Below are positions 864-64,000 of a stretch of DNA of 64,000 nucleotides, one piece after another. This DNA is from an uncultured Candidatus Saccharibacteria bacterium (GTDB lineage Bacteria; Patescibacteriota; Minisyncoccia; Phycocordibacterales; UBA5272), in the NCBI GenBank assembly GCA_964369115.1, contig CAYJED010000004.1:16428-80427 (forward strand). The letters run 5' to 3'. The stretch's first letter is position 1, and every line of letters starts with the position of its first letter. Under the pieces are notes generated by a model. The model searched no databases, was not told where the DNA came from, and saw only the letters and a program-made list of their open reading frames with translations. The translations under genes were made by a program, and so were the position numbers.

Positions 864-932
864 AAACAGGGAACAACTTCCTTGCACCTTCTCTGTTTAC
901 ATTGCTACACTTATCCATATAACTTATTTTTT

Positions 933-46964: not shown

Positions 46965-48305
46965 ATGTTAGTAGAAGAGTTTAATAAGATCCTCTTCTCT
47001 AAAAACCCTATGGCAAAAGAAAAGATCATATGGTCTGCAGTTGCTCGCAAACTGCAAGACCTGATCAAAAACGGATACAATCCGCGCAAGTTAAGCGAGA
47101 ACGAACGAAGAGACTTGGAAAGGTCAATAAAGGAATTCGGAACAGTTGTTCCAGTGATCCTCAATACTGGCTCCCGAACCAATATTATTATTGGTGGCGA
47201 ACAACGAGTCAAAGTATATGCCGATCTCGGCATAGCAGAGATTGAGTGCATGATACCCTCCCGAGAGCTAACGCTTGAGGAAGAGCGAGAACTCAATCTT
47301 CGTCTCAACAAGAACACGGGTTCGTGGAATGAAGAACTTCTCAAAGAGTTTGATATGAGCCTGCTTCTTGATATCGGTTTTGGAGATGAAGAATTACAAA
47401 ACCTATTTGATGATGTTGACCTTGTCGAGGATGACTTTAACCTTGAAAAAGCACTCAAGGAAACAATTAAGCCGAAAGTAAAATCAGGAGAAATTTGGGA
47501 GCTTGGGAAACATCGCCTACTTGTCGGCGATTCTACGGATCAGGAACTCGTGCAGAAGCTCATGAACGGAGACTTGGCGGACATTGTGTACTGCGACCCG
47601 CCATACAACATCGGCTTGGACTATTCCAAAGGAGTTGGAAACAAGGAAAAATACCAGGGTTCGTATTCAGGCAAGGACGACTCCAAGAAAGACAGCGACT
47701 ACATGGATTTCTTGGACAAGAGCATGGAAGTGGCAAAAAGTATCAGCAAGAAAAATGCCCACTTCTTCTATTGGTGCGATTCCTCATATCTTTGGATGGT
47801 TCAAACCTTGTATGCAAAACACAAGGTAGATTCCAAGCGTGTCTGCATGTGGATCAAGAACAACCAGAACCCTACTCACAAGATTGCCTTTAATAAAGTG
47901 TACGAGCCGTGTGTATACGGAACGCTCGGCAAGCCATATCTCAATACAGGAATGAATAACACCAACGAGATCCTTAACCAAGAAGTAACCACTGGCAATC
48001 AAGTACACGATGAAATCCTAGACATGATAGATATCTGGATTGAGAAAAGGGACAACGCTCAGTCGTACCAGCACCCTACGCAAAAACCCGTCACCTTAAA
48101 CGAGAAACCATTTAAGCGTTGCAGTTCTCCACTGCATATCATCTACAGCGGATTTGCAGGAAGCGGTAGTGACCTAATTGCCGCCGAAGAACTACATCGC
48201 GTATGGCGTGGCGTTGAGAAAGATCTCATCTTCGCAACCATTGTCATTGACCGATGGGAGAAATTTACCAACCTTAAGGCAAAGAAAATCTATGAAAATA
48301 AATAA
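46965..48305 (+). CDS. ParB-like nuclease domain fused to DNA methyltransferase (DPPY, N6-adenine/N4-cytosine class)
   Basis: N-terminal ParB-like region (...GYNPRKLSENERRDLERSIKEFG..), then the DPPY motif IV (IVYCDPPYN) and, C-terminal to it, an FAGSGS AdoMet-binding motif with HPTQKP. Confidence 0.75.
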   Translation: MLVEEFNKILFSKNPMAKEKIIWSAVARKLQDLIKNGYNPRKLSENERRDLERSIKEFGTVVPVILNTGSRTNIIIGGEQRVKVYADLGIAEIECMIPSRELTLEEERELNLRLNKNTGSWNEELLKEFDMSLLLDIGFGDEELQNLFDDVDLVEDDFNLEKALKETIKPKVKSGEIWELGKHRLLVGDSTDQELVQKLMNGDLADIVYCDPPYNIGLDYSKGVGNKEKYQGSYSGKDDSKKDSDYMDFLDKSMEVAKSISKKNAHFFYWCDSSYLWMVQTLYAKHKVDSKRVCMWIKNNQNPTHKIAFNKVYEPCVYGTLGKPYLNTGMNNTNEILNQEVTTGNQVHDEILDMIDIWIEKRDNAQSYQHPTQKPVTLNEKPFKRCSSPLHIIYSGFAGSGSDLIAAEELHRVWRGVEKDLIFATIVIDRWEKFTNLKAKKIYENK

Positions 48306-49041
48306 AAGAGACACATTCAAAGTTGGCGATCACATCATTGCTTGCGGTGATTCGCTGGACAAGGCATTTGTCGGCAAGGTCATAGGAAGCAATAAGATAC
48401 GAGCGGTCGTCACTGATCCTCCATACGGCGTTGCGTATGTTGAGAATAAGAAAGGCTTTCTGAAACTTAGCTCTGATGAAGATAAAGCTATAACCAACGA
48501 TCATATCCAAACCGAAGAAGAGTATGGGGAGTTTACCCGCAAATACTTGGGAGCGGTTATTCCATATCTTGAAGAATACAATGCGGTCTACATTTTCAAT
48601 GCCGATCCGATGTTCCCGAGCCTACGCTCTGGCATGAAGTCCGCTGGTTTCTACTACAGCCAAATGATAATTTGGCTCAAGAACCAGCCCGTCATGAGCC
48701 GAAAGGATTACTTGTCGATGTATGAACTCATTGCATACGGTTGGTTCGGTAAGCATCGAATGGAACGGTCTAAAGCGAGAAATGTTATCTACCACCCCCG
48801 ACCGACCAAATCCAGACTTCACCCGACACAAAAACCGATCGGACTGCTCAGAAAAATCATCCCTAACTCAACAAAGGTCGGTGACATTGTTTACGATCCA
48901 TTCCTTGGAAGTGGCTCAACCGCTATTGCCTGTGAACACTTAGGTCGAAAGTGTGTCGGTATCGAGCTTGATGAAGCATATGTAGAAACTACGCTCAAAA
49001 GACTCGAAAAGCTCACTGGCGAAACAGCGATAAAGCTCTAA
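48292..49041 (+). CDS. DNA methyltransferase (DPPY class), second subunit or paralog
   Basis: VVTDPPYG, HPTQKP and DPFLGSGST motifs. Overlaps the upstream methyltransferase by 14 nt. Confidence 0.75.
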   Translation: MKINKRDTFKVGDHIIACGDSLDKAFVGKVIGSNKIRAVVTDPPYGVAYVENKKGFLKLSSDEDKAITNDHIQTEEEYGEFTRKYLGAVIPYLEEYNAVYIFNADPMFPSLRSGMKSAGFYYSQMIIWLKNQPVMSRKDYLSMYELIAYGWFGKHRMERSKARNVIYHPRPTKSRLHPTQKPIGLLRKIIPNSTKVGDIVYDPFLGSGSTAIACEHLGRKCVGIELDEAYVETTLKRLEKLTGETAIKL

Positions 49042-49045: not shown

Positions 49046-49420
49046 ATGATGGAAGAAGACTTTTCAAAAGATCCATACAAGAAGCAAGTCTACGAGACTT
49101 ACGCTCTTTGGAAGTCTTTTCCTTCGTTTCTCAAGGGACAGCCAAGAGTAGCGCTTGAGAAATTTGGTATTGAGGAGGAATCAGCGTTTGAACTGCTTGC
49201 CATAAAGACTCAGGCTGAATTCTCGAAAACATACAAGGTCGATACCGGCACGCTCACGGATTGGAATAAGAGACTTGAGAAAGATGGACTAGTCAAAGAC
49301 ATCAACTCTTGGGCAAGAAAGCTGACTCCGAATGTTATCTTTGCGCTCTATAAGAACATCATCAAAAGCGGCAAAGCTCATGAAGTGAGAGCTTGGTTTG
49401 AGATTATAGAAAACAACTAG
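49046..49420 (+). CDS. hypothetical protein
   Basis: 124 aa, starting 4 nt after the methyltransferase stop. Possibly HTH-like. Confidence 0.35.
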   Translation: MMEEDFSKDPYKKQVYETYALWKSFPSFLKGQPRVALEKFGIEEESAFELLAIKTQAEFSKTYKVDTGTLTDWNKRLEKDGLVKDINSWARKLTPNVIFALYKNIIKSGKAHEVRAWFEIIENN

Positions 49421-49421: not shown

Positions 49422-49622
49422 ATGAAAAAGATTAACTTAGAAGAAATAAATAGTATTCTCTCGGACACCATTCACAAGGTGTTGAATAAGGAAATACCAC
49501 TCAAGCAGGCATCGGTGATTGCTCGTCTTACAGCAACGCTTTCAAAGAACATTGCGAACACTGATCTTAAAGATCGGGTTGAATTCTTGGAAAGCATACT
49601 AAGAAAAAATAAAGACTCATGA
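49422..49622 (+). CDS. hypothetical small protein
   Basis: 66 aa, translationally coupled (ATGA overlap with the next gene). Confidence 0.3.
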   Translation: MKKINLEEINSILSDTIHKVLNKEIPLKQASVIARLTATLSKNIANTDLKDRVEFLESILRKNKDS

Positions 49623-51109
49623 AAAATCTCAGTAACATTTTAAGAAGATCATCAATAACGCCTTTTGAACGAGTGAAGACGCTTGTTCATAATGATATTC
49701 ACAAAGAAAAGACTGGCGAAAGCATGTTGTCTGACTCCGAAGTGTATGTATTGATAGATAGCTGGAACCCAAGAGTAATCGAGGCAAAAGAATATAACAG
49801 ATATGTGGGTATTGTTCGCTTAGAAAATACCATGAAGATGGATGCTCAAATGTTTTTAAACAGAGCGGAAATAGCACTGTTGCGAAATCAAAGAGTGCTT
49901 GATAGTTTCGTTTTCAATGCAACCTTGCTTAAGGCGTTAGCGGAGCAAGAATTTCTCAAGGATATCCCGAGAGAAGAAAGCATGCAGTTTCTTACTGAGC
50001 ATACTTATTTTGAGTATCAAAAACTGCTTCATATTTTCACCTTCAACAATCTACCGAAGGAAATTCAAAATGATTTATTCCTGCTCGATGAATATGCTAA
50101 CTGCGACAAACGATATTTAGAGGACGAGGTATTTCTTTATGAGAGATTTAAGGACGGTACTGAGTTAAGCAAACAAGACAAAGATCTCATCATTGGTCGT
50201 ATCTACTCTGGTATGTACTACGAGGGAGCAAAGAAGATAAAGAAAAGTACATCAGAGAAAGATGGATTTTTGATCCACCACTTCTTTGGTGAATTACCCG
50301 TAGAAGATATCTTCAAAAAGATGGCATACGATGCACATATTCAATACGACGATAGTGATTTTGAAAGCAAAGTCTTATCAGGACTAGAGGAATATGTAAA
50401 AAACAAAAATATAAGCATGGAGTCTTTGGTTAAGGATGCAATATCTCGTTGGCTAGACGAAGGGTTGTTCGTGAATGACTACTCACCGATTTTTATGAGC
50501 GAGCGTTTCAATACCTGGAATGGAAACACTAAAAAGAATCATAAGGAGCTATTCACAGCTTGGTACACGGAACTGAAAAAGTCCGAGCAGGTTTTTCAAA
50601 GTTTGTTTGATGCAAAGAAGCTAGAAAAAGGATCTGTCGAGATAGAGATACTGGGAATGAAGAAAACGCTGGAGATTGTAACCGGCACTAGTTTGCTCGC
50701 TTGCAAAGAGAATCTGCTCTTTATTTCTGAATATAAGCGACAGGTTGAAATGCTTTTACCAGCTGCAAATATGCATCTCTTTGTGAAGAAGCATGCGTAT
50801 CCAGTTAAAAGCTACAAAACACTTTGCGAGTTTAAGAACCTAGCTGAAAGATTTTCCATTCAGTTTGATATTGATATAACCGATCAATACGATCATTTCA
50901 TTAATTCATACAAAGAAGAAGTTGCTCTTTTAAACCACAGTATGAGTAGGCTACTAGATACGGCAACCGAATATCTCTACACGGAAAAATCTTCGCATTA
51001 CATTCCCGATATTAATGAGGGTGGTTTCTTGTTTGATACCGAGAAGGATGACGGTGTAGCTGAAATTGCTAATTTATATTCTGAGGAGTTTAAAAAGCTA
51101 GGAATGTAA
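49619..51109 (+). CDS. hypothetical protein (496 aa), last gene of methylase operon
   Basis: Long ORF with no recognised motif, coupled to the upstream genes. Confidence 0.4.
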   Translation: MKNLSNILRRSSITPFERVKTLVHNDIHKEKTGESMLSDSEVYVLIDSWNPRVIEAKEYNRYVGIVRLENTMKMDAQMFLNRAEIALLRNQRVLDSFVFNATLLKALAEQEFLKDIPREESMQFLTEHTYFEYQKLLHIFTFNNLPKEIQNDLFLLDEYANCDKRYLEDEVFLYERFKDGTELSKQDKDLIIGRIYSGMYYEGAKKIKKSTSEKDGFLIHHFFGELPVEDIFKKMAYDAHIQYDDSDFESKVLSGLEEYVKNKNISMESLVKDAISRWLDEGLFVNDYSPIFMSERFNTWNGNTKKNHKELFTAWYTELKKSEQVFQSLFDAKKLEKGSVEIEILGMKKTLEIVTGTSLLACKENLLFISEYKRQVEMLLPAANMHLFVKKHAYPVKSYKTLCEFKNLAERFSIQFDIDITDQYDHFINSYKEEVALLNHSMSRLLDTATEYLYTEKSSHYIPDINEGGFLFDTEKDDGVAEIANLYSEEFKKLGM

Positions 51110-51219: not shown

Positions 51220-51669
51220 TTAGATAAAAATCATTAGCAATATACCGACTAGGAATAATGTAAGTGCTTGTTTGTAATCCTTGTTCTTGCCTTCCAAAGC
51301 TTTTGAATTATCATCAAACGCTTTTTGATAATCTGAGAGTAATTGATCTAAAAGGGTTTCAGTTTTCATTGAACGATAATCTTTTGGATCATTATAAAAA
51401 TCCACTACGCCCGTATTATATGTTTTAACTTTCAATGTTTGCCAAAGGAAATATCCAGAAAAGAGCAGAATCATTATCGGTATTACTTGAAGAGCATGGA
51501 TATGATGAAAACTTTGTATGTAGAAAATGAGAATAGCTCCCTCTAGTGGAATCATTACTCCTGCTTTTGCATCAAGTCCGTTATCGGCATTGAGTAAATA
51601 ATCAACCTTGCTTCTTGTTGCATTTACAAGTATTTCTAGTGATTTGGTTTTGTCTTCATGCTCGGTCAT
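51220..51669 (-). CDS. small membrane protein co-transcribed downstream of Type III res
   Basis: 149 aa with two central TM helices and one C-terminal TM helix. Its start overlaps the res stop by 4 nt. Confidence 0.4.
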   Translation of the reverse strand: MTEHEDKTKSLEILVNATRSKVDYLLNADNGLDAKAGVMIPLEGAILIFYIQSFHHIHALQVIPIMILLFSGYFLWQTLKVKTYNTGVVDFYNDPKDYRSMKTETLLDQLLSDYQKAFDDNSKALEGKNKDYKQALTLFLVGILLMIFI

Positions 51670-53960
51670 ATAACATCCTTTAAATTATCCCAACCGTTCA
51701 AGCTCGGAGAGTAAGTATATTTCTTTCCTGAATTGAGTTTCCAACCATTCGGGCCGTCTTGAACAGCAATACCACCAGCTATATTCTTTTTACCTTTGAG
51801 CCATTCTTGCAGCGCCTCGGCTTTGTATTTAGTATCGGCAATTTCAGCAGTAGATCCTTTCTTGGTGTCTACGATCCAAACCTTGTCTTTTGTCTTAAAA
51901 ATCCAATCAGGATAAAAGAGTTTTTCTTTATTCTCGTCAGGGTTGTAGTAAGCAAGCGAGAAATATTCGCTTCCTGAATCACCGTTTTTGTACCACCATT
52001 CAATAGCTTTGTGCTCTTCTAGGAATTTAATGAATTCCTTTTCGTTATCTTCGCCTTTGTAATCTCTCTCGATATAAAACGGAGCCATAGCCGATTTCTT
52101 CACACTCATTTCTTCGTACTGGTCGGTATAGAAAAGACTCTCACGAGGAATCTCAATTTGCTCCGTTCGTTTTGCGCGCTCAGATTTGCGATTTACTTCT
52201 TGTTCACGGATTGGACGATAGACTGCAAGAGCATCACCGATCACAGGAGCGAGAACGCTTGCTTGGTTCAACAGGTCGTTAACGATAATGTTGTAAATAA
52301 CATGGCGTGTTTCTCCTGTATTGTTCAATAACCAAACATTAAGAGCGGTCTTGAGCTTTCCCCATGAACGCTCTGGTGCAAATTTCTTGTTTTCGTCAGT
52401 CTGCTTTGCAATAAGGTTAAAGCAGAATAAGTTGTATAGGCGTTCAAGATCATACTGGGACATTTCTTGATCGTGGCTTCCACCTTCTGCCAGTAGCTCT
52501 TTTGTGAAATTATCATAATCGTCAATTTCCACATTAACGATTAGTCCATTCGTAACTGTTACAGATATATCTAAACCTTTGTCTTTCAGTCGCTTGAGTA
52601 CCTTAGTTTCTTTTTCATTGATTCCAAAATACTTATCTGCTACTTTTTGAAATACGTCTTGGAAAGAATCACCAAGGTCGTTATAGTCGGTACGACTCAT
52701 GAATACGGAATCAACCATAATAGGCTTAACAGATTGCTTGCGGTAACTTCCGTAAATGGCAGGTCGGTTTTGTTCTGTAGATTTAGAGTAACCCGTGATG
52801 ACTTCGTTTCTTTTGTAGTTGGTATAAAGATAACCTAGATTTAATTCTGGCTTTGGAAAATGAAAACCTAGAGGCATACGAAGAATACGGCCAACAGTCT
52901 GAATAGCAAAAGTTGGGTTTTTAATCTCACGGAACATCACAAGCACACTTGCGCGAGGACAATCCCAGCCTGTCGCGGCGGCTTGTTTAAAAAGAAGAAA
53001 TGATACTGGCGAATTGTTTCTCTCGATGTCTTCAAGGTTGATCTTATCTTCGGAAAGCCACACCGCAATCTCATGCTCAAAAACACCTTTTGATTTAAGA
53101 AAGTCAGTTATCAAAGCTTGTTTTGTTACTCCACCTGACTCCTTACTTGCTTTGTCGTCATTTGGAAGCTGTACCAATACGAGAGGGTTCACTTCAACAC
53201 CAATTTCTTTGTAATACGCCACAAGCTCGGCTCGTTTGTTATATGCGAGAGTCAAAAGAATATCGTCCTGATCCATTCCCGCAAATTCTTTTTTAGCCAA
53301 ATCTTCTTCTGTCTGAAAAATAATCTTTTCTTTGATAAGCCCCTCACGCACAACATCGGCACGATTAACGTCTACAGTCACGCCTACTGTTTGCGGGGTA
53401 GCAGAAACACCGATAATAATTCGGGGCTTAATAACATTCTGGATAAGGTCGCTTGCAAGCACCGTGGACGAGGCGATATGTTCCTCGTCGATGATAAGTA
53501 CCACTTCGCGACCTTGCGAGTGTGTAGCTTCAAGATATTCGTCAAAAGTAGTATTCAATTCTCCCTCAGTGCGGAGCTTACGGTTTGTTTGCGCGCGAGA
53601 CACCAACTTCTGCCAGTTTATGAAAAAGACACCGCTTCGAGGGATGCAACCGTCACGGAGATCATTCAAATCAAGGAGCGTATTTTCGCTTGCACCGCCG
53701 TAATATGAAAAAAGTTTGTCTTTGGATTGCATCGCAAGCGAGTCTGAGTTTGTGATCCACAGAAATCCAACGTCAGCATTCTGGAAGCGTGGATCAGAAA
53801 CAATATCGCGGAGAAACTGCGCCATCATAATTGTCTTACCCGATCCAGTTGGAGATTTAAAAGTCAGGTTTAAATTACGATCGCCAAGTTTCCAAAGCGT
53901 CAGGAATTTCTCCTTGAGTTGTGAGATTGCAGTTTCTTGGAATGGTTTAAGTGCGAACAT
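51666..53960 (-). CDS. res: Type III restriction enzyme, Res subunit (SF2 helicase-nuclease)
   Basis: KPFQETAI, Walker A SPTGSGKT, the DEEH box, SAT motif, and helicase motif VI-like QTVGRILR. Confidence 0.8.
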   Translation of the reverse strand: MFALKPFQETAISQLKEKFLTLWKLGDRNLNLTFKSPTGSGKTIMMAQFLRDIVSDPRFQNADVGFLWITNSDSLAMQSKDKLFSYYGGASENTLLDLNDLRDGCIPRSGVFFINWQKLVSRAQTNRKLRTEGELNTTFDEYLEATHSQGREVVLIIDEEHIASSTVLASDLIQNVIKPRIIIGVSATPQTVGVTVDVNRADVVREGLIKEKIIFQTEEDLAKKEFAGMDQDDILLTLAYNKRAELVAYYKEIGVEVNPLVLVQLPNDDKASKESGGVTKQALITDFLKSKGVFEHEIAVWLSEDKINLEDIERNNSPVSFLLFKQAAATGWDCPRASVLVMFREIKNPTFAIQTVGRILRMPLGFHFPKPELNLGYLYTNYKRNEVITGYSKSTEQNRPAIYGSYRKQSVKPIMVDSVFMSRTDYNDLGDSFQDVFQKVADKYFGINEKETKVLKRLKDKGLDISVTVTNGLIVNVEIDDYDNFTKELLAEGGSHDQEMSQYDLERLYNLFCFNLIAKQTDENKKFAPERSWGKLKTALNVWLLNNTGETRHVIYNIIVNDLLNQASVLAPVIGDALAVYRPIREQEVNRKSERAKRTEQIEIPRESLFYTDQYEEMSVKKSAMAPFYIERDYKGEDNEKEFIKFLEEHKAIEWWYKNGDSGSEYFSLAYYNPDENKEKLFYPDWIFKTKDKVWIVDTKKGSTAEIADTKYKAEALQEWLKGKKNIAGGIAVQDGPNGWKLNSGKKYTYSPSLNGWDNLKDVI

Positions 53961-53963
53961 AGA

Positions 53964-55700
53964 TTAAATGCGGTTAATTTCTTTATAAACTTCAAGGATC
54001 GGTTCGGGAATATCTTCGACACGGATAGTCCTCGTAGAATAATCATTCTTATACTCATTCTTACCCCAACCAAAAACATACAGCGTTGTTGGCTGATTTT
54101 TCTTCTCAAGAATCTTTATAATTTCTTTAAGTTTTGTTTTATCTTCCGTGAAATAGATAGCGGTTAACTTTCCGTTACCTTCAAAAATTTGCCACCACTC
54201 ATTTTTATCGACTTCATTTGAGGTGTTTTCTCGGAGTGCGATCATCTCTCCAGCCTGATAAGTAATTTTAATTTTTGCCTCATCAGAAATACGATGTAAC
54301 TTATCTACGTTTACCATATCGGTTTTAAAGTAAGATAAATTCCCACTAAGACCCTCGACTTTCACTCCTTTTCTGTTTTTATATCCTTTAATAACGCGTT
54401 TCAATCGCTCATATGTAACTTCTTCACAGATCTTATTTTCATTATTCGTACAAAGAATAAACTTACGATTACCACCATCTTGTTTATTGAGTTCAAGAAC
54501 GGCATGACCTGTAGTACCAGAGCCAGCGAAAAAATCGAGAATAACAGCATCTCTTTTGTCACTCATAACTCTTAAACTATCCATTACTGCGTAGAGAGAT
54601 TTTGGATAAGAAAATATTTGAAGTTCTGCGAAAATATCTTTTAATAGATTTGTTCCGTAAGCAGTCGAAGAATATTCTTTCTTATCCCACCAAGTCATAG
54701 GCAAAATTCCATCTTCGTTCATTCGTCCCTTTACATAAATCTGAAGTTTGCTTTTTTGTATACGAGATTGAAATTCATCCTGTTCATTCATGAATCTTTC
54801 AATACCCCAACGCCAACGTCTTTGCTTGCCGTCATCATCAATTGGATAGATTATTTCCTCTCCCTTTTTAGGCTTTTCTAATAATTGGTAATCTTCTAAA
54901 TTGTCGTCCCATGTTAATTTAGGCAACCTAATTGAATCTTTGGTTGCAAAGATCGGGTAGTACATTTTTGGAGACTCTTCTCGCATACTTCCGGGCTTGC
55001 GGAAGTTAACCCATTCAAAAGCACCATTCGCGTCTTTTTCATCATATCGGTCAATTTGAGACTGGTTTCTATCAAGTCTGGACACAAAAGCGGATTCTGT
55101 TTTTCCAAAAAAGACGGCATATTCGTGGGTAATAGATATTCCTTTTGTTGTAGATCTGCCCGCTGGATTGTTTCTGATAGGCACAGTTCCTAAATGATTG
55201 AATTCTCCAAAAATTTCTTCCATCAAGAGAATCAGTCTTGAAATTTCATAATCATCAATCGTGACGCAAATTATGCCATTTTCTTTGAGCAAGTTTTTAG
55301 CCAAACGCAACCTCTTTTCCATAAAAGAGATCCACTTGCTATGGCGAAAATTGTCGTTCTTATCTACATAGTCATTGTTGTATCGCCAGTCTGTTGCGCC
55401 GGTATTGTATGGCGGATCCGCGTAAATAACATCGACTGCGCCGCGATGCGTATAGTTCAAAACAGAAAGCGAGTGGTAATTATCTCCCTCGATTAGAATG
55501 TTCGTCGGGAGTGAATTATCAGAAACTAACTTTCTACTTTTAACTTCTTTAAGAAGAGGAATATTCGTCTCGCATTGCAAAACGACATCCTCTGGTTTAT
55601 CTTCCCAGACGAGTCCGTATTTTTTGCGATTCTTTAATTTTTTTATTTCAGATTGTAAATCTGAAATTTGAGCGCGTAGCTCTTTTTCTGTTTGAGACAT
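53964..55700 (-). CDS. mod: Type III restriction-modification system Mod methyltransferase
   Basis: IYADPPYNTG (motif IV) and FFAGSGTTGHA (motif I). 578 aa, immediately upstream of res. Confidence 0.85.
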   Translation of the reverse strand: MSQTEKELRAQISDLQSEIKKLKNRKKYGLVWEDKPEDVVLQCETNIPLLKEVKSRKLVSDNSLPTNILIEGDNYHSLSVLNYTHRGAVDVIYADPPYNTGATDWRYNNDYVDKNDNFRHSKWISFMEKRLRLAKNLLKENGIICVTIDDYEISRLILLMEEIFGEFNHLGTVPIRNNPAGRSTTKGISITHEYAVFFGKTESAFVSRLDRNQSQIDRYDEKDANGAFEWVNFRKPGSMREESPKMYYPIFATKDSIRLPKLTWDDNLEDYQLLEKPKKGEEIIYPIDDDGKQRRWRWGIERFMNEQDEFQSRIQKSKLQIYVKGRMNEDGILPMTWWDKKEYSSTAYGTNLLKDIFAELQIFSYPKSLYAVMDSLRVMSDKRDAVILDFFAGSGTTGHAVLELNKQDGGNRKFILCTNNENKICEEVTYERLKRVIKGYKNRKGVKVEGLSGNLSYFKTDMVNVDKLHRISDEAKIKITYQAGEMIALRENTSNEVDKNEWWQIFEGNGKLTAIYFTEDKTKLKEIIKILEKKNQPTTLYVFGWGKNEYKNDYSTRTIRVEDIPEPILEVYKEINRI

Positions 55701-56004
55701 AGGGGTACAGTTCTATGTCTCGGCTATCCATATTTGGTTTGTATAGAAACGGCAAAGAGGGACAGCCGAGCCTGTACCCCATAATGGTGCTACCCCGAAA
55801 GGTTCCTGTTATGGAACTCGGACTGCCCCTCTTTGCCTATAACAGGTAAGAGAAAACAGTCCTTTCGGGGACGAAGCACTAAATATATAAACACTATGGG
55901 GTACAAATGAACTCTAACATAAAAACACCTCTAAATAAAGGCTTATTTAGAGGTGTTTACCAACAGTCTGGACTTTGCGAGTGCTTCGCGTCATTTAATA
56001 GTAT

Positions 56005-56328
56005 GTGGACGATATTGAGGCCGTTATCAAGGCCAGCCAGCATTTCAAATATGAGGAATCCGAGGTAAGTTATGCTTTCAACAAAGCCTCTGACTTACCG
56101 GAATCTAAGTCGAATCTGAAGCGAGCCATAAAGGAGCGCATTCAGCTTTTGTGCGCTTCATATATTTCACTGGCTTCTTTCTTGCCTGATGAGGATGCGG
56201 AATATTTGCTCGGCCTTCATGGAGAGCAGAAGAAAAAGCGATCAATTAAAATCATGATGCGAATGATGAAAGAAATGGATAAGCTCGAAAAAGAGATCCG
56301 TAATTTTGATCCGTTTTCACCTCTATAA
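56005..56328 (+). CDS. hypothetical protein (GTG start; duplicate at 59374..59697)
   Basis: 107-aa ORF downstream of a 15-bp-stem hairpin. No clear RBS. Confidence 0.25.
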   Translation: MDDIEAVIKASQHFKYEESEVSYAFNKASDLPESKSNLKRAIKERIQLLCASYISLASFLPDEDAEYLLGLHGEQKKKRSIKIMMRMMKEMDKLEKEIRNFDPFSPL

Positions 56329-56419
56329 AAAATTGAGCGGACTCGCTTCGCGAGTAAATGCCAAAGGGTCAAAGAACCCAAGAGTCAAAGAATCAGAAAA
56401 ATACAAAGAGACAACAGGT

Positions 56420-58261
56420 CTAAGATTCAGACTTGCGGAGACGGAACACGAACTCAACGTCCGGAATCCACGCGCTGTCGGGCGACGCCCAACTGCGGCG
56501 CAGCCACAAACCGCCAACGTCGCGTTCGAGGCGGAAGACGTACGGGCTGCCGCCGGAGTCAGCGATTTGCTTCATACCAATACGTACCCATTCATTGAGA
56601 GGTTGATCTTTGTATTTAAGACGATAGTTAGGACCAGTATCAGGAGGACACAACTCCAAGCCAAGCGTTTGTGCGCGTTCGTAAATTTGGTCAGTGGTAG
56701 CGCTTGTCTTGAATCCGAGGTCAGCGACAGTAAGACGGATGAGTGTTGCTTCTTCGCGAGTCTTTCCGGGAATGAAGTCGCGATTTTTCATCATAGACTT
56801 TGCGTAATCAGAAATATTTATGTGAGCCGCTTCCATTTCAGCAATTAACTGTTCAGTAGTCTTGCCTCCGATCTCTACGCTTTCTCTGCGGATTTTCTTT
56901 TCAGGGAATGAAGTGTAGACATGTTCAAGACCTTCCGGCAATTTTTGGAATATGCCTGGTTCAAGCTGTCCGACATAGGCTTTGGTGTCTTTTGTGATCT
57001 GACTTGGCACGTGAGCAATATCTTCTTTTGTACACTCAAAAATAACAAGCATGTCTTCCTCGGTGTTTCGCCCTTTGCGTAGTTCAGCGATACGAGGGTC
57101 TGTCTGATAACCGAACCCTTCAATTGATGAATTGATTTCGTAGAGGAATACTAAATCGTCTTTGGTAAAGGGTTCATCCTGTTCACGCTTCTGGTCGAGA
57201 GCGGTCAGTATTTTCATATCTCCGCTTTTCTTGCGGTACGCATCAGCCTCACCACCAAAGTCTTGGAGTTTTGCATCAAGTGCTTCCTGCATAATTGGCT
57301 CTACGCCCTGATGCGGAAGAATACCTCTCACTTCGCCGATTCTATTGTCGCCCTCCATGCGGATCGCAAGACGAGGTTGGGTTGGTTCGCCGTTTGAATC
57401 ATTCGTGTAATAAACATAAAAGTCGCCATTCTCTATTTGTGTTTCTGCTGTCGATTTACCGGCAGTACACCAACCAGTTCCTTTTCCTTCAAGTGACTCA
57501 AATAATTGTTCGGCATCGCCGCTCTGTCCTTGTTGATATTTTTTCCATTCACCTTTAACTTCCTCGCGGTTCTCCATTGAAGCGGCGAGAGATTTTGAAA
57601 TGAGTTCGGCGTATAAGCTCGGAAACTTTTGAGAAAAGGCTTCGCGGATTTCAGGCTCTTTGAGATTCTTATTGTCTTCTTTTACCTTGAGATAAATATC
57701 AGCAATCTGTGCCAACGGCTCGCGGTAGATATCGGGGTATGGTGCAACAGTACTATCGGTACGCTTTTTGAACTCGCCACGCTCCTTGTCGAACTGTGAA
57801 AGTTTAGTGATATTTTTCCAAACGAAGTACTTGAACCACGCTGGGTACATAGCATCGTCTGAAGTAAGGTACTCCATCCACGCATCAAGCGATGCCCGCT
57901 GATCTTCAATAGCAACATCCATCATTTGTTCACGGACATTGTCAGGAATTTCCTCTACTGCTTGTCCGCGCTCGCGGGCGATGCGTTTCTGTAATTCAAA
58001 ATATGATTCAGGAAAATTCTCCTTCTTTATGATGAACGCATCATATATTTTATCGCGAAACATTTCGAGATTGCGTTCGCGTTTCTTTTCGTCAGGGTTA
58101 AGAAAAACATTCTCCAAGCGATCCATGTATGCCTCGATACGCTCGGCAGGATCGTTCGGCATTTTTTCGCCAGTGTGTCGCTCCTCTCGCACAACTGCCC
58201 GATTTACCTCGGGAGAGGTTTGGAGTTCTGGGCTTTTAAGATGGAGCGGATGTTTTTCCAT
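56420..58261 (-). CDS. DGR target protein with C-terminal CLec-like variable region (copy 1)
   Basis: 613 aa. The C-terminus SGGSPYVFRLERDVGGLWLRRSWASPDSAWIPDVEFVFRLRK corresponds codon-for-codon to the Asn-rich TR. There is no signal peptide. Confidence 0.8.
   Translation of the reverse strand: MEKHPLHLKSPELQTSPEVNRAVVREERHTGEKMPNDPAERIEAYMDRLENVFLNPDEKKRERNLEMFRDKIYDAFIIKKENFPESYFELQKRIARERGQAVEEIPDNVREQMMDVAIEDQRASLDAWMEYLTSDDAMYPAWFKYFVWKNITKLSQFDKERGEFKKRTDSTVAPYPDIYREPLAQIADIYLKVKEDNKNLKEPEIREAFSQKFPSLYAELISKSLAASMENREEVKGEWKKYQQGQSGDAEQLFESLEGKGTGWCTAGKSTAETQIENGDFYVYYTNDSNGEPTQPRLAIRMEGDNRIGEVRGILPHQGVEPIMQEALDAKLQDFGGEADAYRKKSGDMKILTALDQKREQDEPFTKDDLVFLYEINSSIEGFGYQTDPRIAELRKGRNTEEDMLVIFECTKEDIAHVPSQITKDTKAYVGQLEPGIFQKLPEGLEHVYTSFPEKKIRRESVEIGGKTTEQLIAEMEAAHINISDYAKSMMKNRDFIPGKTREEATLIRLTVADLGFKTSATTDQIYERAQTLGLELCPPDTGPNYRLKYKDQPLNEWVRIGMKQIADSGGSPYVFRLERDVGGLWLRRSWASPDSAWIPDVEFVFRLRKSES
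56432..56564 (-). repeat. DGR variable repeat VR (copy 1)
   Basis: The reverse complement matches TR 58554..58686 at 110/133 positions; all 23 mismatches are opposite TR adenines. Confidence 0.85.
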
Positions 58262-58553
58262 ATATGGTTCGCATTATAGCATAAATTACTGCGAAATAAA
58301 GAGGTTTTTGGTATACTATTTTCAGATTGGTTTCATTGAACGGCTACGGTTTTTCAAGACCAATTTACTTCATGTAGATTGAGAGCGCGAACGGTTACGG
58401 CTTTTCGCGGAGGATGTGCATTGAGGTCTTTAAAAAGAAAAAACTTGGTGCGACGCGCTGGTTGATTTTCGATCACGCATAACGATACAGCACGGCTTCT
58501 GGCATATCATGTGCGCTTAAGTCGGCGGTGAGATGGATGGCGTGCCGCACAAA

Positions 58554-58686
58554 CGCTGACTCCGACGGCAACCCGAACGTCTTCAACCTCGAACGCAACG
58601 ATGACGGTTTGTGGCTGAACAACAATTGGGCGAAACCCGACAACACGTGGAATCCGGACAATAAGTTCGTGTTCCGTCTCCGAAAC
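58554..58686 (+). repeat. DGR template repeat TR (copy 1)
   Basis: Non-coding AAC-rich repeat (translating as ...SDGNPNVFNLERNDDGLWLNNNWAKPDNTWNPDNKFVFRLRN), followed by a hairpin ccgcgac..gtcgcgg. Confidence 0.85.
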
Positions 58687-58710
58687 TATTTTCTTTTCCG
58701 CGACCTCATG

Positions 58711-59121
58711 TTACATGTCGCGGTTTTTCTTTTCAGGGTTGGCAAGATTTTTCTTCCAACCGCCAAACATCTTGCCAACTTCTTCGAGTTTCAATGCAAC
58801 GCTCTCACAGTGAGCGTTTGAAATAAGCTTGCCCTCCCATGCAACAGAAACAAGAAACTTTAGTGTGTCTAACACCAAAATACACTCATTAATTTTCTCC
58901 TCTTTCTTATCTTTTTCTATAAAATAGGCAATGTATGACAATTCAAGCAGATCGAGAAACTTGTTCTCAATTCGTGAGCCAATTGTATAGCGTGCCCCTT
59001 TAGCAATATGCGGAACAATATTAACCCAAATCAAATAGCCCTCTTTAATCCTGTTGAGAATCGAGGCGTTGTTGGTGTGCGAAAGTCGGGGGGGGGGGGG
59101 GAGATTAGTAGCTCGGTTCAT
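58711..59121 (-). CDS. avd: Avd-like four-helix-bundle accessory protein (copy 1)
   Basis: About 130 aa with HIAKGARYTIGSRIENKFLDLLELSYIA...LEEVGKMFGGWKK, resembling the Avd/23S-rRNA-IVS four-helix-bundle family. A poly-C run (14 nt) encodes PPPP near the N-terminus. Confidence 0.6.
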   Translation of the reverse strand: MNRATNLPPPPRLSHTNNASILNRIKEGYLIWVNIVPHIAKGARYTIGSRIENKFLDLLELSYIAYFIEKDKKEEKINECILVLDTLKFLVSVAWEGKLISNAHCESVALKLEEVGKMFGGWKKNLANPEKKNRDM

Positions 59122-59211
59122 ATCTACAATAATATCATTTCTGTCGAAAACTTACTCGTCGCATGGCGAGAATTCCTCCATGGAAAACGGACTGCCCCTC
59201 TTTGCCTATAA
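59008..59211 (+). pseudogene. truncated 5' fragment of the DGR reverse transcriptase (copy 1 of duplication)
   Basis: Identical to the first 60 codons of the 62377.. ORF (...ENLLVAWREFLHGKR), then interrupted by the duplication junction. Confidence 0.6.
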
Positions 59212-59373
59212 CAGGTAAGAGAAAACAGTCCTTTCGGGGACGAAGCACTAAATATATAAACACTATGGGGTACAAATGAACTCTAACATAAAAACACCTC
59301 TAAATAAAGGCTTATTTAGAGGTGTTTACCAACAGTCTGGACTTTGCGAGTGCTTCGCGTCATTTAATAGTAT

Positions 59374-59697
59374 GTGGACGATATTGAGGCCGTTATCAAG
59401 GCCAGCCAGCATTTCAAATATGAGGAATCCGAGGTAAGTTATGCTTTCAACAAAGCCTCTGACTTACCGGAATCTAAGTCGAATCTGAAGCGAGCCATAA
59501 AGGAGCGCATTCAGCTTTTGTGCGCTTCATATATTTCACTGGCTTCTTTCTTGCCTGATGAGGATGCGGAATATTTGCTCGGCCTTCATGGAGAGCAGAA
59601 GAAAAAGCGATCAATTAAAATCATGATGCGAATGATGAAAGAAATGGATAAGCTCGAAAAAGAGATCCGTAATTTTGATCCGTTTTCACCTCTATAA
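59374..59697 (+). CDS. hypothetical protein (duplicate of 56005..56328)
   Basis: Exact duplicate. Confidence 0.25.
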   Translation: MDDIEAVIKASQHFKYEESEVSYAFNKASDLPESKSNLKRAIKERIQLLCASYISLASFLPDEDAEYLLGLHGEQKKKRSIKIMMRMMKEMDKLEKEIRNFDPFSPL

Positions 59698-59788
59698 AAA
59701 ATTGAGCGGACTCGCTTCGCGAGTAAATGCCAAAGGGTCAAAGAACCCAAGAGTCAAAGAATCAGAAAAATACAAAGAGACAACAGGT

Positions 59789-61630
59789 CTAAGATTCAGA
59801 CTTGCGGAGACGGAACACGAACTCAACGTCCGGAATCCACGCGCTGTCGGGCGACGCCCAACTGCGGCGCAGCCACAAACCGCCAACGTCGCGTTCGAGG
59901 CGGAAGACGTACGGGCTGCCGCCGGAGTCAGCGATTTGCTTCATACCAATACGTACCCATTCATTGAGAGGTTGATCTTTGTATTTAAGACGATAGTTAG
60001 GACCAGTATCAGGAGGACACAACTCCAAGCCAAGCGTTTGTGCGCGTTCGTAAATTTGGTCAGTGGTAGCGCTTGTCTTGAATCCGAGGTCAGCGACAGT
60101 AAGACGGATGAGTGTTGCTTCTTCGCGAGTCTTTCCGGGAATGAAGTCGCGATTTTTCATCATAGACTTTGCGTAATCAGAAATATTTATGTGAGCCGCT
60201 TCCATTTCAGCAATTAACTGTTCAGTAGTCTTGCCTCCGATCTCTACGCTTTCTCTGCGGATTTTCTTTTCAGGGAATGAAGTGTAGACATGTTCAAGAC
60301 CTTCCGGCAATTTTTGGAATATGCCTGGTTCAAGCTGTCCGACATAGGCTTTGGTGTCTTTTGTGATCTGACTTGGCACGTGAGCAATATCTTCTTTTGT
60401 ACACTCAAAAATAACAAGCATGTCTTCCTCGGTGTTTCGCCCTTTGCGTAGTTCAGCGATACGAGGGTCTGTCTGATAACCGAACCCTTCAATTGATGAA
60501 TTGATTTCGTAGAGGAATACTAAATCGTCTTTGGTAAAGGGTTCATCCTGTTCACGCTTCTGGTCGAGAGCGGTCAGTATTTTCATATCTCCGCTTTTCT
60601 TGCGGTACGCATCAGCCTCACCACCAAAGTCTTGGAGTTTTGCATCAAGTGCTTCCTGCATAATTGGCTCTACGCCCTGATGCGGAAGAATACCTCTCAC
60701 TTCGCCGATTCTATTGTCGCCCTCCATGCGGATCGCAAGACGAGGTTGGGTTGGTTCGCCGTTTGAATCATTCGTGTAATAAACATAAAAGTCGCCATTC
60801 TCTATTTGTGTTTCTGCTGTCGATTTACCGGCAGTACACCAACCAGTTCCTTTTCCTTCAAGTGACTCAAATAATTGTTCGGCATCGCCGCTCTGTCCTT
60901 GTTGATATTTTTTCCATTCACCTTTAACTTCCTCGCGGTTCTCCATTGAAGCGGCGAGAGATTTTGAAATGAGTTCGGCGTATAAGCTCGGAAACTTTTG
61001 AGAAAAGGCTTCGCGGATTTCAGGCTCTTTGAGATTCTTATTGTCTTCTTTTACCTTGAGATAAATATCAGCAATCTGTGCCAACGGCTCGCGGTAGATA
61101 TCGGGGTATGGTGCAACAGTACTATCGGTACGCTTTTTGAACTCGCCACGCTCCTTGTCGAACTGTGAAAGTTTAGTGATATTTTTCCAAACGAAGTACT
61201 TGAACCACGCTGGGTACATAGCATCGTCTGAAGTAAGGTACTCCATCCACGCATCAAGCGATGCCCGCTGATCTTCAATAGCAACATCCATCATTTGTTC
61301 ACGGACATTGTCAGGAATTTCCTCTACTGCTTGTCCGCGCTCGCGGGCGATGCGTTTCTGTAATTCAAAATATGATTCAGGAAAATTCTCCTTCTTTATG
61401 ATGAACGCATCATATATTTTATCGCGAAACATTTCGAGATTGCGTTCGCGTTTCTTTTCGTCAGGGTTAAGAAAAACATTCTCCAAGCGATCCATGTATG
61501 CCTCGATACGCTCGGCAGGATCGTTCGGCATTTTTTCGCCAGTGTGTCGCTCCTCTCGCACAACTGCCCGATTTACCTCGGGAGAGGTTTGGAGTTCTGG
61601 GCTTTTAAGATGGAGCGGATGTTTTTCCAT
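59789..61630 (-). CDS. DGR target protein (copy 2, identical)
   Basis: Identical 613-aa product, VR included. Confidence 0.8.
   Translation of the reverse strand: MEKHPLHLKSPELQTSPEVNRAVVREERHTGEKMPNDPAERIEAYMDRLENVFLNPDEKKRERNLEMFRDKIYDAFIIKKENFPESYFELQKRIARERGQAVEEIPDNVREQMMDVAIEDQRASLDAWMEYLTSDDAMYPAWFKYFVWKNITKLSQFDKERGEFKKRTDSTVAPYPDIYREPLAQIADIYLKVKEDNKNLKEPEIREAFSQKFPSLYAELISKSLAASMENREEVKGEWKKYQQGQSGDAEQLFESLEGKGTGWCTAGKSTAETQIENGDFYVYYTNDSNGEPTQPRLAIRMEGDNRIGEVRGILPHQGVEPIMQEALDAKLQDFGGEADAYRKKSGDMKILTALDQKREQDEPFTKDDLVFLYEINSSIEGFGYQTDPRIAELRKGRNTEEDMLVIFECTKEDIAHVPSQITKDTKAYVGQLEPGIFQKLPEGLEHVYTSFPEKKIRRESVEIGGKTTEQLIAEMEAAHINISDYAKSMMKNRDFIPGKTREEATLIRLTVADLGFKTSATTDQIYERAQTLGLELCPPDTGPNYRLKYKDQPLNEWVRIGMKQIADSGGSPYVFRLERDVGGLWLRRSWASPDSAWIPDVEFVFRLRKSES
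59801..59933 (-). repeat. DGR variable repeat VR (copy 2, identical to copy 1)
   Basis: Offset of 3369 from VR copy 1. Confidence 0.85.
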
Positions 61631-61922
61631 ATATGGTTCGCATTATAGCATAAATTACTGCGAAATAAAGAGGTTTTTGGTATACTATTTTCAGATTGGT
61701 TTCATTGAACGGCTACGGTTTTTCAAGACCAATTTACTTCATGTAGATTGAGAGCGCGAACGGTTACGGCTTTTCGCGGAGGATGTGCATTGAGGTCTTT
61801 AAAAAGAAAAAACTTGGTGCGACGCGCTGGTTGATTTTCGATCACGCATAACGATACAGCACGGCTTCTGGCATATCATGTGCGCTTAAGTCGGCGGTGA
61901 GATGGATGGCGTGCCGCACAAA

Positions 61923-62055
61923 CGCTGACTCCGACGGCAACCCGAACGTCTTCAACCTCGAACGCAACGATGACGGTTTGTGGCTGAACAACAATTGGGC
62001 GAAACCCGACAACACGTGGAATCCGGACAATAAGTTCGTGTTCCGTCTCCGAAAC
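61923..62055 (+). repeat. DGR template repeat TR (copy 2)
   Basis: Offset of 3369 from TR copy 1. Confidence 0.85.
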
Positions 62056-62079
62056 TATTTTCTTTTCCGCGACCTCATG

Positions 62080-62490
62080 TTACATGTCGCGGTTTTTCTT
62101 TTCAGGGTTGGCAAGATTTTTCTTCCAACCGCCAAACATCTTGCCAACTTCTTCGAGTTTCAATGCAACGCTCTCACAGTGAGCGTTTGAAATAAGCTTG
62201 CCCTCCCATGCAACAGAAACAAGAAACTTTAGTGTGTCTAACACCAAAATACACTCATTAATTTTCTCCTCTTTCTTATCTTTTTCTATAAAATAGGCAA
62301 TGTATGACAATTCAAGCAGATCGAGAAACTTGTTCTCAATTCGTGAGCCAATTGTATAGCGTGCCCCTTTAGCAATATGCGGAACAATATTAACCCAAAT
62401 CAAATAGCCCTCTTTAATCCTGTTGAGAATCGAGGCGTTGTTGGTGTGCGAAAGTCGGGGGGGGGGGGGGAGATTAGTAGCTCGGTTCAT
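62080..62490 (-). CDS. avd: Avd-like accessory protein (copy 2)
   Basis: Identical to copy 1. The G14 tract lies at 62457..62470. Confidence 0.6.
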   Translation of the reverse strand: MNRATNLPPPPRLSHTNNASILNRIKEGYLIWVNIVPHIAKGARYTIGSRIENKFLDLLELSYIAYFIEKDKKEEKINECILVLDTLKFLVSVAWEGKLISNAHCESVALKLEEVGKMFGGWKKNLANPEKKNRDM

Positions 62491-63480
62491 ATCTACAATA
62501 ATATCATTTCTGTCGAAAACTTACTCGTCGCATGGCGAGAATTCCTCCATGGAAAACGGAGCCGTAAAGATGTAGCCCAATTTTCAGTGCATCTGACCGA
62601 TAATATACTTGCCCTTCATCGTGAACTCGTTGATAAGACCTACCATCACGGTCCATACAAAGCTTTTCGTATCAACGATCCTAAGCCGCGCGATATTCAT
62701 AAGGCGAGTGTTCGTGATCGGTTACTTCACCATGCTATTTATAGAATTTTGTATCCATATTTTGATCCTAAATTTATTTTTGATTCATACTCATGTCGTC
62801 GTGGCAAAGGCACGCACCGTGCGCTTGATAGATTCCGAGACTATGCGCGCAAAGTTTCTAAAAATCATATCCAAACGGTGTGGGTGTTAAAGTGCGATAT
62901 CAGAAAGTTTTTTGCAAACATTGATCACAGAATTTTGGAAGATATTTTGAAACTCAGGATGGGAGATGAAGATGTGATACGGCTTTTCAGAGAAATAGTC
63001 GGCAGTTTTAATACCAAAGACAAACACGGTGTCGGTCTCCCTCTTGGCAATTTGACGAGCCAGCTACTAGTAAACATTTATATGAATGAGTTTGATCACT
63101 TTCTCAAGCGAGATTTGAAAATTAAATACTGCGTCAGATATGCGGATGATTTTGTTATCCTGCATAAAGACAAAAAATATTTAGAAAGTGTCTTGCCAAA
63201 AATCTCTGCATTTTTAGAGACAAGGCTCAAGCTTTCTCTGCATCCCGATAAGGTATTTATAAAAACATTCGCTTCGTGCGTGGACTTTCTTGGTTGGGTG
63301 CATTTTCCGCATCATCGCGTACCGAGGACATCAACAAAAAAGAGAATGTTCAGAAATTTAAATCAAAACCCAAAAAAGGAATCACTAAGTTCCTATGCTG
63401 GACTTCTGAGTCACGGCGATACACATGAATTACGAGAGACGATATTTGAGCGGTATTCAGACAATAAGGAGAAAAACTGA
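62377..63480 (+). CDS. DGR-type reverse transcriptase (5' boundary uncertain; ORF overlaps avd on the opposite strand)
   Basis: RT motifs: RINDPKPRDIHKASVRDRLLHHAI (1-2), LKCDIRKFFANIDH (3), GLPLGNLTSQLLVNIYM (4, the DGR-type SQ variant), YADD (5), LHPDK (6), FLGW (7). Confidence 0.8.
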   Translation: MRNNINPNQIALFNPVENRGVVGVRKSGGGGEISSSVHIYNNIISVENLLVAWREFLHGKRSRKDVAQFSVHLTDNILALHRELVDKTYHHGPYKAFRINDPKPRDIHKASVRDRLLHHAIYRILYPYFDPKFIFDSYSCRRGKGTHRALDRFRDYARKVSKNHIQTVWVLKCDIRKFFANIDHRILEDILKLRMGDEDVIRLFREIVGSFNTKDKHGVGLPLGNLTSQLLVNIYMNEFDHFLKRDLKIKYCVRYADDFVILHKDKKYLESVLPKISAFLETRLKLSLHPDKVFIKTFASCVDFLGWVHFPHHRVPRTSTKKRMFRNLNQNPKKESLSSYAGLLSHGDTHELRETIFERYSDNKEKN

Positions 63481-63554: not shown

Positions 63555-64000
63555 ATGAAAACAACAGCACCAATTGGCTACGAAATGACCCAAGTAGTCC
63601 AAACGCCAATAAAAGCACGATATTGCCTCTATGCCCGTAAATCGACGGAATCAGAAGAAAGACAAGTCCTTTCAATAGATTCACAGATCAAGGAAATGTT
63701 ACAGCTCGCAGAAAGAGAAGGCCTTGAGATTGTGGCAATGAAAAGAGAGTCCCACTCTGCCAAAGAGACAGGGCAACGACCCGTGTTCAATGAAATAATC
63801 GAAGAGCTCAGACAAGAGAAATTCAATGCGATATTAACTTGGGCACCTGATCGAATTAGCAGAAATGCCGGTGACTTGGGAAAGATAGTGGATCTCATGG
63901 ATGCAGGTAAGCTACTTCAAATACGGACATTTGGGCAAACATTTTCTAATAATCCCAATGAGAAGTTCCTCTTAATGATCCTCGGATCGCAGGCAAAGCT
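63555..64000 (+). CDS. serine recombinase (resolvase-domain N-terminus), 3' partial at window end
   Basis: MKTTAPIGY...YCLYARKSTESEERQVLSIDSQ...LTWAPDRISRN shows the catalytic Ser motif and the start of the resolvase fold. The ORF runs off the window. Confidence 0.7.
   Translation, partial: MKTTAPIGYEMTQVVQTPIKARYCLYARKSTESEERQVLSIDSQIKEMLQLAEREGLEIVAMKRESHSAKETGQRPVFNEIIEELRQEKFNAILTWAPDRISRNAGDLGKIVDLMDAGKLLQIRTFGQTFSNNPNEKFLLMILGSQAK

Follow-up and report, generated by a model that had tools for sequence, protein, structure and literature searches.

A large serine recombinase gene beside a diversity-generating retroelement, likely the integrase of a tRNA-Ser island with relatives across Patescibacteria

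The genomes of Patescibacteria are tiny, mostly without CRISPR, and abound in diversity-generating retroelements (DGRs). How they gain defence and diversification systems is poorly understood. Several described kinds of element are close enough to serve for comparison. SCC elements, with their recombinases CcrA, CcrB and CcrC, use the 3' end of a conserved housekeeping gene as their insertion site, form tandem composites, include recombinase-less pseudo-elements and carry restriction-modification (RM) and defence cargo. The tycheposons of Prochlorococcus are modular cargo elements of streamlined genomes, found at tRNA genes including tRNA-Ser(tga) and stacked in islands, and some of them are PICI-like with terS (10.1101/2020.12.28.424599). 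Tyrosine recombinases occur in 910 of the 937 elements surveyed in that study (tycheposons and cryptic elements together), large serine recombinases (LSRs) being in the minority. Targeting of the 3' end of tRNA genes is attributed to tyrosine integrases in the Islander paper (PMC4383910), and an LSR is used by the phage satellite PLE (PMC6002521). Genomic islands and RM systems in Patescibacteria are treated in PMC12455944.

Here, we analyzed a stretch of 64,000 nucleotides, called the window below, at the end of which a frame is open on the plus strand from an ATG at 63555 to the last nucleotide, 64000. Its 148 codons read MKTTAPIGYEMTQVVQTPIKARYCLYARKSTESEERQVLSIDSQ...DRISRN..., and the Pfam Resolvase N-terminal domain (PF00239) covers residues 25-147 with E=9e-17 (62 bits against a cut-off of 23.3). 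The nucleophile motif YxRxS...SxxxQ is legible as YARKSTESEERQVLSIDSQ (YARKS...SIDSQ). This gene, SR2, follows the end of the reverse transcriptase (RT) frame of a DGR at 63480 after a spacer of 74 nt, and it is thus the resolvase-type N-terminus that the original prediction had placed just after the RT stop, running off the window. It had been counted as the second recombinase; it is actually the third LSR gene copy in the window, as another recombinase, SR1, is present twice. In our view, a composite island of about 20 kb is likely present at the 3' end of a tRNA-Ser(tga) gene, with SR2 as its integrase.

63555..64000, plus strand: 5' part of SR2 (148 of 441 codons), putative island integrase (Pfam; overlap with L081)

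An exact look-up of the RT protein, meant to extend the contig, gave no record. The rest of the gene was obtained with a 48-nt exact-match pattern drawn from the window end, which retrieved one metagenome contig, JACCDT010485258.1 (L081, 1419 bp). The reverse complement of this contig matches window positions 63881-64000 at 120 of 120 nt and carries the frame on to a stop, giving a protein of 441 aa; the overlap is confined to these 120 nt of a gene conserved between genomes, and the join may be chimeric. The extension goes on to a tRNA-Ser gene. In the completed protein, the domains Resolvase (E=5.9e-21), Recombinase (PF07508, E=6.9e-14) and Zn_ribbon_recom (PF13408, E=2.7e-9) were detected, the latter two being present in L014 as well. 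By this architecture, and provided that the join with L081 holds, SR2 is a large serine recombinase.

The relatives of SR2 are uniformly about 440 aa long. The nearest solved structure is that of the SPbeta integrase YokA/SprA (9dxh, E=1.7e-12). With the serine integrases of this type (SPbeta SprA/YokA, A118, TP901-1, phiC31), SR2 shares the three domains and the nucleophile motif, and its gene is likewise terminal in the integrated element, reading toward the junction. It differs from them in sequence, as no relative above 30% identity was found among the phage genomes deposited in GenBank. It also differs in its target, the 3' end of tRNA-Ser, of the kind that PMC4383910 ascribes to tyrosine integrases. 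No recombination directionality factor was recognized for SR2, either in family searches or in the ORF between SR2 and the right end of the island; this small ORF, considered as a candidate, is conserved in L003 only and has no family match. The top NCBIfam match of SR2 is CcrB (129 bits against a cut-off of 900), followed by XisF (78.5 against 375), CcrA (66 against 700) and CcrC (65.4 against 900); all these scores are below the curated cut-offs, and an assignment as a Ccr or XisF equivalog was rejected. SR2 and SR1 are only about 24% identical, over the catalytic domain. At three loci (L008 9953-12689, L026 12-2748, L076 5309-8021), SR2 stands convergent with a paralog of about 55% identity, with 20-23 nt of overlap between the two 3' ends.

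Searches with the 148-aa fragment brought up more than 1200 related proteins, with 67-91% identity among the 120 best listed. In GTDB species genomes, it matched at least 536 sites, nearly all in Patescibacteria MAGs. From the GTDB matches, 80 loci were fetched (L001-L080), to which 37 loci from IMG/VR were added; the relatives belong to Patescibacteria almost throughout both sets. Many SR2 proteins in databases are fragmentary, and the contigs of L001, L005, L011, L041 and L051 end inside the gene; such breaks are expected in assemblies when a sequence is shared among co-assembled genomes, and they count as a further sign of mobility. Between full-length SR2 proteins, the median pairwise identity across all locus pairs is 74%. 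In the same pairs, the chromosomal genes flanking the islands reach 39% (RuvX-like) and 28-61% (other families, most at 51% or less). An identity so far above that of the flanking genes is a signal of horizontal spread, and from this comparison of sequences we infer that the islands are mobile.

It could be argued instead that the site is a fixed defence hot-spot, where genes near tRNA-Ser come and go by other routes while SR2 is vertically inherited and domesticated. Highly variable cargo beside a constant SR2 and constant ends would fit this view, as would the fact that no excision product was seen in the searches of the locus and of IMG/VR. However, the median identity of 74% in SR2 is far above the mostly 28-51% of neighbouring housekeeping genes. 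The islands also occupy genes for five tRNA-Ser isoacceptors in differing chromosomal neighbourhoods, and two islands or tandem arrays can be present in a single genome (L007/L065, both in one MAG; L089/L090). We therefore regard a fixed hot-spot as quite improbable, and keep to the reading of SR2 as the integrase of a mobile island.

The tRNA-Ser association is consistent across the loci. In L081, the SR2 stop is followed by a terminator, ATGTACTCGGGTCGCC..GGGAACGCTCCGATAATAAGTTGTCTTG, the core GCGG and then, about 300 nt past the stop, a tRNA-Ser(tga) gene that is encoded on the other strand and has its 3' end toward SR2. Among the 54 genome loci having any tRNA downstream of SR2 (ARAGORN), the first one is a tRNA-Ser on the opposite (minus) strand in 51, at 0.1-8.5 kb from SR2, and the anticodons are of five kinds (gct 23, tga 14, act 6, cga 4, gga 4). 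Upstream of SR2, only three tRNAs of any kind were found over all loci. The relevant tRNA is this tRNA-Ser just past the window end, and not the tRNA-Glu at 42051 from which the original prediction had drawn the accessory stretch.

Next to the tRNA, a right arm of the form ..ACTCGGGTCGC-N~25-GGGTTGACTCCGATA..TTG, or its variant ..GTCACAGC..GGGTCAACAAAACTAACAGGTTGTCAAT, was recognized. An HMM of this arm gave 46 matches, 45 on the SR2 strand; 36 of the 46 adjoin the 3' end of tRNA-Ser, and the rest adjoin tRNA-Ser fragments, contig ends or attP-type junctions. No conserved DNA was found immediately past the SR2 stop, the arm being at variable distance from it, beside the tRNA. At the other end, a left-end motif of about 110 nt reads GCGG, then TG.A....G.GTTAAGTACCC....TAAGG.TATT.TAGCA....GGGTCGGGGTC. 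It was found 17 times by nhmmer at E<1e-5 in the window and the loci, always on the SR2 strand, and lies mostly upstream of the ParB-methylase or p251 genes, directly after a terminator hairpin. On its opposite strand, the motif holds TGCTAAAAT, an extended -10-like box pointing across the junction toward mini-element genes. Covarying GGGT/ACCC segments in the motif could reflect RNA pairing or protein-binding repeats. As a known RNA it was rejected, as an Rfam search of 45000-46200 gave only weak microRNA and sRNA matches, far below the gathering scores.

In the window, these ends delimit the following features, the island running from 45142 to about 1.2 kb beyond the window end, i.e., about 20.0 kb from core to core.

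45142..45145, plus strand: GCGG core, left island junction (attL-type), with the p376/AlkC terminator hairpin (45095-45145) to its left
45133..45238, plus strand: left-end motif, copy 1, GCGG then TGTATGTGAGTTAAGTACCCAC..TAAAGGTATTTTAGCA..GTGGGTC (nhmmer E=4.8e-25)
45253..45924, minus strand: p223, sole gene of an 823-bp recombinase-less mini-element (45146-45964) between island-end sequences
45933..45968, plus strand: attP-type junction, made of the right-end remnant TATCTGGGTCACTCCGATAC (45933-45952), a T-rich spacer and the core GCGG (45965-45968)
45957..46061, plus strand: left-end motif, copy 2, left end of the main element (nhmmer E=1.6e-24)
46102..46830, plus strand: p251 (family F64), first gene of the main element, start probably at 46102 (MTVGELV) as in L030 and L043
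46965..48305, plus strand: ParB-N and N6/N4 DNA methyltransferase (family F1; Pfam, PHROGs)
48178..49041, plus strand: second N6/N4 DNA methyltransferase
49046..49420, plus strand: p124 (family F11), small conserved backbone protein
49619..51109, plus strand: p496 (family F8), conserved backbone protein with 121 homologs
51220..51669, minus strand: PycTM-like membrane protein of 149 aa (PADLOC PycTM, Pycsar effector transmembrane, E=1.9e-5, weak)
51666..55700, minus strand: type III RM system, Res 51666..53960 and Mod 53964..55700

Only GCGG is common to both island ends. It is the reverse complement of the last two acceptor-stem bases of tRNA-Ser, the discriminator and the first C of CCA, and it occurs at 45142-45145, at 45965-45968 and, in the merged sequence, at 65175-65178; a core of 4 bp is weak on its own. 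The tRNA-Ser genes that are unoccupied (L004 9119, L012 15201, L016 10999, L090 16233) read CTCCGC, then an A-rich stretch and a terminator hairpin, and an attB rebuilt from the outer left flank of the window (hairpin 45095-45145) and the tRNA side of the right junction resembles these flanks. A putative att dyad, GGGT..CCGA.TA, is present on both arms around the 4-bp GCGG; it is imperfect and was judged by eye. The empty site of this exact locus was not found through homologs of AlkC (p376), the only close match being a 1767-bp piece from this population that stops at the repeat. For circular or attP forms in IMG/VR, a strict pattern gave no match, and a relaxed one gave two chance matches in coding DNA. 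In L082, a short-read contig from this population with 99.9% identity, the sequence breaks off 10 nt past the core at 45142-45145.

The main element runs from 45965 to the tRNA-Ser. Attached to its left is the mini-element, whose gene p223 had no match in family searches. Junctions of the attP type like the one between the two are found at L006 8990, L010 15026 and L024 1039, and the combination of mini-element and tandem junction also occurs in these three loci. Recombinase-less one-gene mini-elements at tRNA-Ser form short arrays at 45146-45964 of the window, L010 14408-15821 and L024 73-1205. The original prediction spoke of one composite island or several nested ones; in the window, a mini-element and a main element stand in tandem, and SR1 belongs to a separate element, described below. 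Ahead of p251, positions 46062-46101 hold direct repeats CAAATGCCAA-CAAATGCCAA and a TATAAT box, kept in L030 and L043, which look like an operator.

From these observations, the following mechanism may be proposed. SR2 would recombine an element site, composed of a right arm ...ACTCGGGTC..GGGA/TT.ACTCCGATA..TTG, the core GCGG and a left arm TGTA..GTTAAGTACCC..., with the acceptor-stem and discriminator end of tRNA-Ser genes. Integration would regenerate the tRNA at the SR2-proximal junction and leave the core beside the former tRNA terminator at the distal one. Repeated integrations would build tandem arrays, represented in the window by the 823-bp mini-element and the main element. Under this scheme, the empty site would read as the AlkC terminator ..TTTTTGTATAT joined to the tRNA-Ser sequence GCGGAGGAGGTGAG, and a circle or tandem form would read ..CTCCGATAATAAGTTGTCTTG-GCGG-TGTATGTGAGTTAAGTACCC. 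That SR2 acts as catalyst at these sites, that excision may continue and that phage-like packaging could mediate transfer (some relatives bear terminases) are deduced from the comparison; the tRNA-Ser association, the conserved ends, the gene identities, the domain architecture and the variability of the cargo are directly visible in it.

For the comparison of backbone and cargo, the ORFs of all loci were clustered into families. The series p251, ParB-N/methylase, second methylase, p124 and p496 of the window is colinear with L043, L034, L030, L013, L021, L037 and the IMG/VR loci L089/L090. The ParB-methylase family F1 lies upstream of SR2 in 25 of the 80 loci. The p496 family is restricted to Patescibacteria; the AF2 model of p496 is of high confidence (pLDDT 89.7, pTM 0.82), and its structural matches were uninformative, being generic helical bundles only. 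In most other islands, the backbone consists of ParB-methylase, a TerS-like protein (PHROG terminase small subunit, E=1.9e-6) and TerL (Terminase_6C, E=4.6e-7). No kinship of p124 or p496 to the TerS-like (family F3) or terminase proteins was detected by hhalign, and no terminase, replication or transfer gene was recognized in the element of the window.

These terminase genes raise the question of a phage origin, since ParB-methylase beside terminase is a common phage arrangement. SR2 could be the integrase of a former temperate phage of Patescibacteria, left in a decayed and immobile prophage which later gained defence genes; the relatives with TerS-like and TerL near SR2 and the recovery of 37 loci among the viral predictions of IMG/VR go in this direction. 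Nevertheless, the set ParB-methylase, TerS, TerL and SR2 recurs in L053 and in at least 15 IMG/VR loci, side by side in the latter, and genes for capsid, portal or tail are missing there; such a recurrent compact set looks selected rather than left by random decay. SR2 is moreover intact and much better conserved than its flanks, and the deposited phage genomes lack a close relative of it, as noted above. A decayed prophage is accordingly unlikely, and an island with SR2 as its integrase remains the preferred explanation.

Between the backbone and SR2 is a slot whose content changes from island to island: type I RM in about 19 genome loci, type III RM in 5, a DGR (target, Avd and RT) in 7-8 genome loci and 3 IMG/VR loci, and other genes too. 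In the window, the slot holds the PycTM-like protein, the type III Res/Mod pair and the DGR. The PycTM-like gene is directly downstream of Res, an arrangement kept in L006 and L083. As the content of the slot varies across related islands, the DGR is one of several interchangeable cargoes; it belongs to the island and is no fixed part of the chromosome.

The same slot bears on the possibility that SR2 acts locally as an invertase or resolvase, inverting or resolving a DNA segment so that, for instance, RM specificity or expression of the DGR target is switched. Phase variation through recombinases adjacent to type I RM loci with several hsdS genes is a known phenomenon, and type I RM systems having two hsdS-like genes are often found upstream of SR2. 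Against this, SR2 has the full LSR architecture and not the invertase form of about 190 aa, and elsewhere its neighbours are type III RM genes or DGRs, or cargo is absent altogether. Within the island of the window, no inverted repeats came to light apart from the TR/VR pairs of the DGR, and the association with tRNA-Ser would be left unexplained. Such a role is scarcely credible for SR2, which we continue to treat as an integrase.

The DGR consists of the following features, most of which are present twice.

62377..63480, plus strand: DGR reverse transcriptase (Pfam RVT_1 E=2.1e-23; PADLOC RT)
62080..62490, minus strand: bAvd-like accessory protein (Pfam PF22296 E=1.2e-11), duplicate at 58711..59121
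61920..62054, plus strand: template repeat (TR), duplicate at 58551-58685
59789..61630, minus strand: DGR target of 613 aa with variable repeat (VR) 59802-59936, identical copy at 56420..58261 with VR 56433-56567
55819..62560: perfect tandem duplication with a 3369-bp unit (55819-59187 and 59188-62556) and a 4-bp CGGA overlap or microhomology

All 24 mismatches between TR and VR are at TR adenines, and with its RT, Avd and adenine-specific TR/VR pair the DGR is genuine. Its 613-aa target gene had no family match. Each 3369-bp unit contains a 107-aa ORF, the target gene, the TR, Avd and the first ~180 nt of RT, and the duplication has left a truncated 5' copy of RT at 59008-59191. As the two copies are identical, VRs included, the duplication is either very recent or an artefact of assembly. 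The segment 55702..55870, proposed in the original prediction as an att-like repeat, was rejected as an att site; it is the intergenic region between Mod and the start of this duplication and covers its left edge. The suggestion that the DGR may ride on a mobile element fared better: the DGR is between conserved ends, beside an intact SR2 and in the same slot as in relatives, on an island that is probably mobile. Compared with DGRs of phages and prophages, of which that of Bordetella phage BPP-1 is the prototype, it is alike in RT, Avd, adenine-specific TR/VR and mobile carrier; it differs in that the carrier is a tRNA-Ser island of non-viral appearance, the target is unmatched and the cassette is tandemly duplicated.

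A second, orphan DGR target was found at 31755-33212 (gene 32306..33202, minus strand; VR2 32315-32443; TR2 31810-31938). VR2 and TR2 differ at 26 positions, 18 of them TR adenines, and neither Avd nor RT is adjacent. The segment is 87% identical in DNA to the target and TR of the DGR in the SR2 island of L021 (2951-4182), the homology ending where the Avd of L021 begins.

Outside the island, SR1 and its surroundings have the following layout.

36043..37830 and 40376..42091: copies of the gene for SR1, a large serine recombinase (595 vs 571 aa)
33386-42056: SR1 element of 4333 bp as a perfect tandem pair (33386-37718 and 37719-42051), junctions sharing GGTGA

Besides SR1, each element has ORFs of 157, 171 and 229 aa; the tRNA-Glu(ctc) gene (42051-42125, minus strand) contains the right junction in its 3' end. 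Because the ORF of SR1 reads across the element junction, its two copies differ in the C-terminus. An Rfam LOOT RNA (RF03000) is present once per SR1 element, at 34296-34422 and 38629-38755 (84.5 bits against a gathering score of 46.4). Thus, the original prediction of an accessory stretch from tRNA-Glu onward with both recombinases in it has to be revised: SR1 is beyond tRNA-Glu in its own 4333-bp tandem element, and the island starts only at 45142. The segment between, 42126-45141 (p187, MscL-like and AlkC-like), is outside the conserved ends, and L010 and L021 show synteny for p187, the MscL-like gene and tRNA-Glu(ctc). An inversion of the whole island relative to these two loci was considered and rejected, as their islands are at a different tRNA-Ser gene, beside the same p187/MscL/tRNA-Glu block. 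The AlkC-like DNA alkylation repair gene (43935-45065) has relatives of at most 59% identity, save one identical fragment from the same population; the few with an organism name are from outside Patescibacteria (Saprospiraceae, Chitinophagaceae, Vitreimonas), which suggests that the gene was acquired from outside the phylum. Far from the island, a 113-nt unit is present at 1390-1502 and 1504-1616 (100% identical), with a 67% copy at 424-536, inside the ORFs 84..863 and 882..1619.

Taken as a whole element, the island resembles SCC elements (see PMC10055296) in its 3'-end target, tandem arrays, recombinase-less units and RM cargo; it differs in using tRNA-Ser and not rlmH, in its single recombinase gene, in the host phylum and in the low CcrB score of SR2. 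With tycheposons, SR2 islands share modular cargo, a tRNA target, stacking and, in some relatives, terS, whereas tycheposons often carry replication genes, which were not recognized in the island of the window, and tyrosine recombinases predominate among the elements surveyed with them, SR2 being an LSR. With phage satellites (PICI, PLE, P4-like), they have in common a small size, an integrase at one end and defence cargo, and there are relatives with TerS/TerL and no capsid. However, SR2 islands have no known helper phage, replication module or capsid-remodelling genes, and the element of the window has p124/p496 where the terminase genes stand in relatives.

The kind of element is thus already known, namely a site-specific integrative island, and the family appears to be large and undescribed. 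No description of SR2 elements was found in the literature, by a search that was incomplete, and an earlier description is possible. More tentatively, as a possibility which we hold with somewhat less than even confidence, SR2-type elements may form a phylum-wide island family of Patescibacteria. Its highly conserved integrase would act at the acceptor end of any tRNA-Ser, next to a backbone of ParB-methylase with either a terminase pair or p124/p496. Its slot would shuttle RM systems and DGRs between distantly related ultra-small bacteria, and single-gene cassettes that lack a recombinase but have the same sites at their ends would be mobilized in trans and give integron-like arrays at tRNA-Ser. 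Such islands would explain the movement of RM systems and DGRs across the phylum. Also, a recognizable integrase with a tRNA-Ser target and defined ends would delimit accessory DNA in thousands of fragmented MAGs, many of them broken within the SR2 gene itself. Finally, with its predicted att pair, SR2 could serve as a serine integrase in genetic tools for Patescibacteria, which have almost none.
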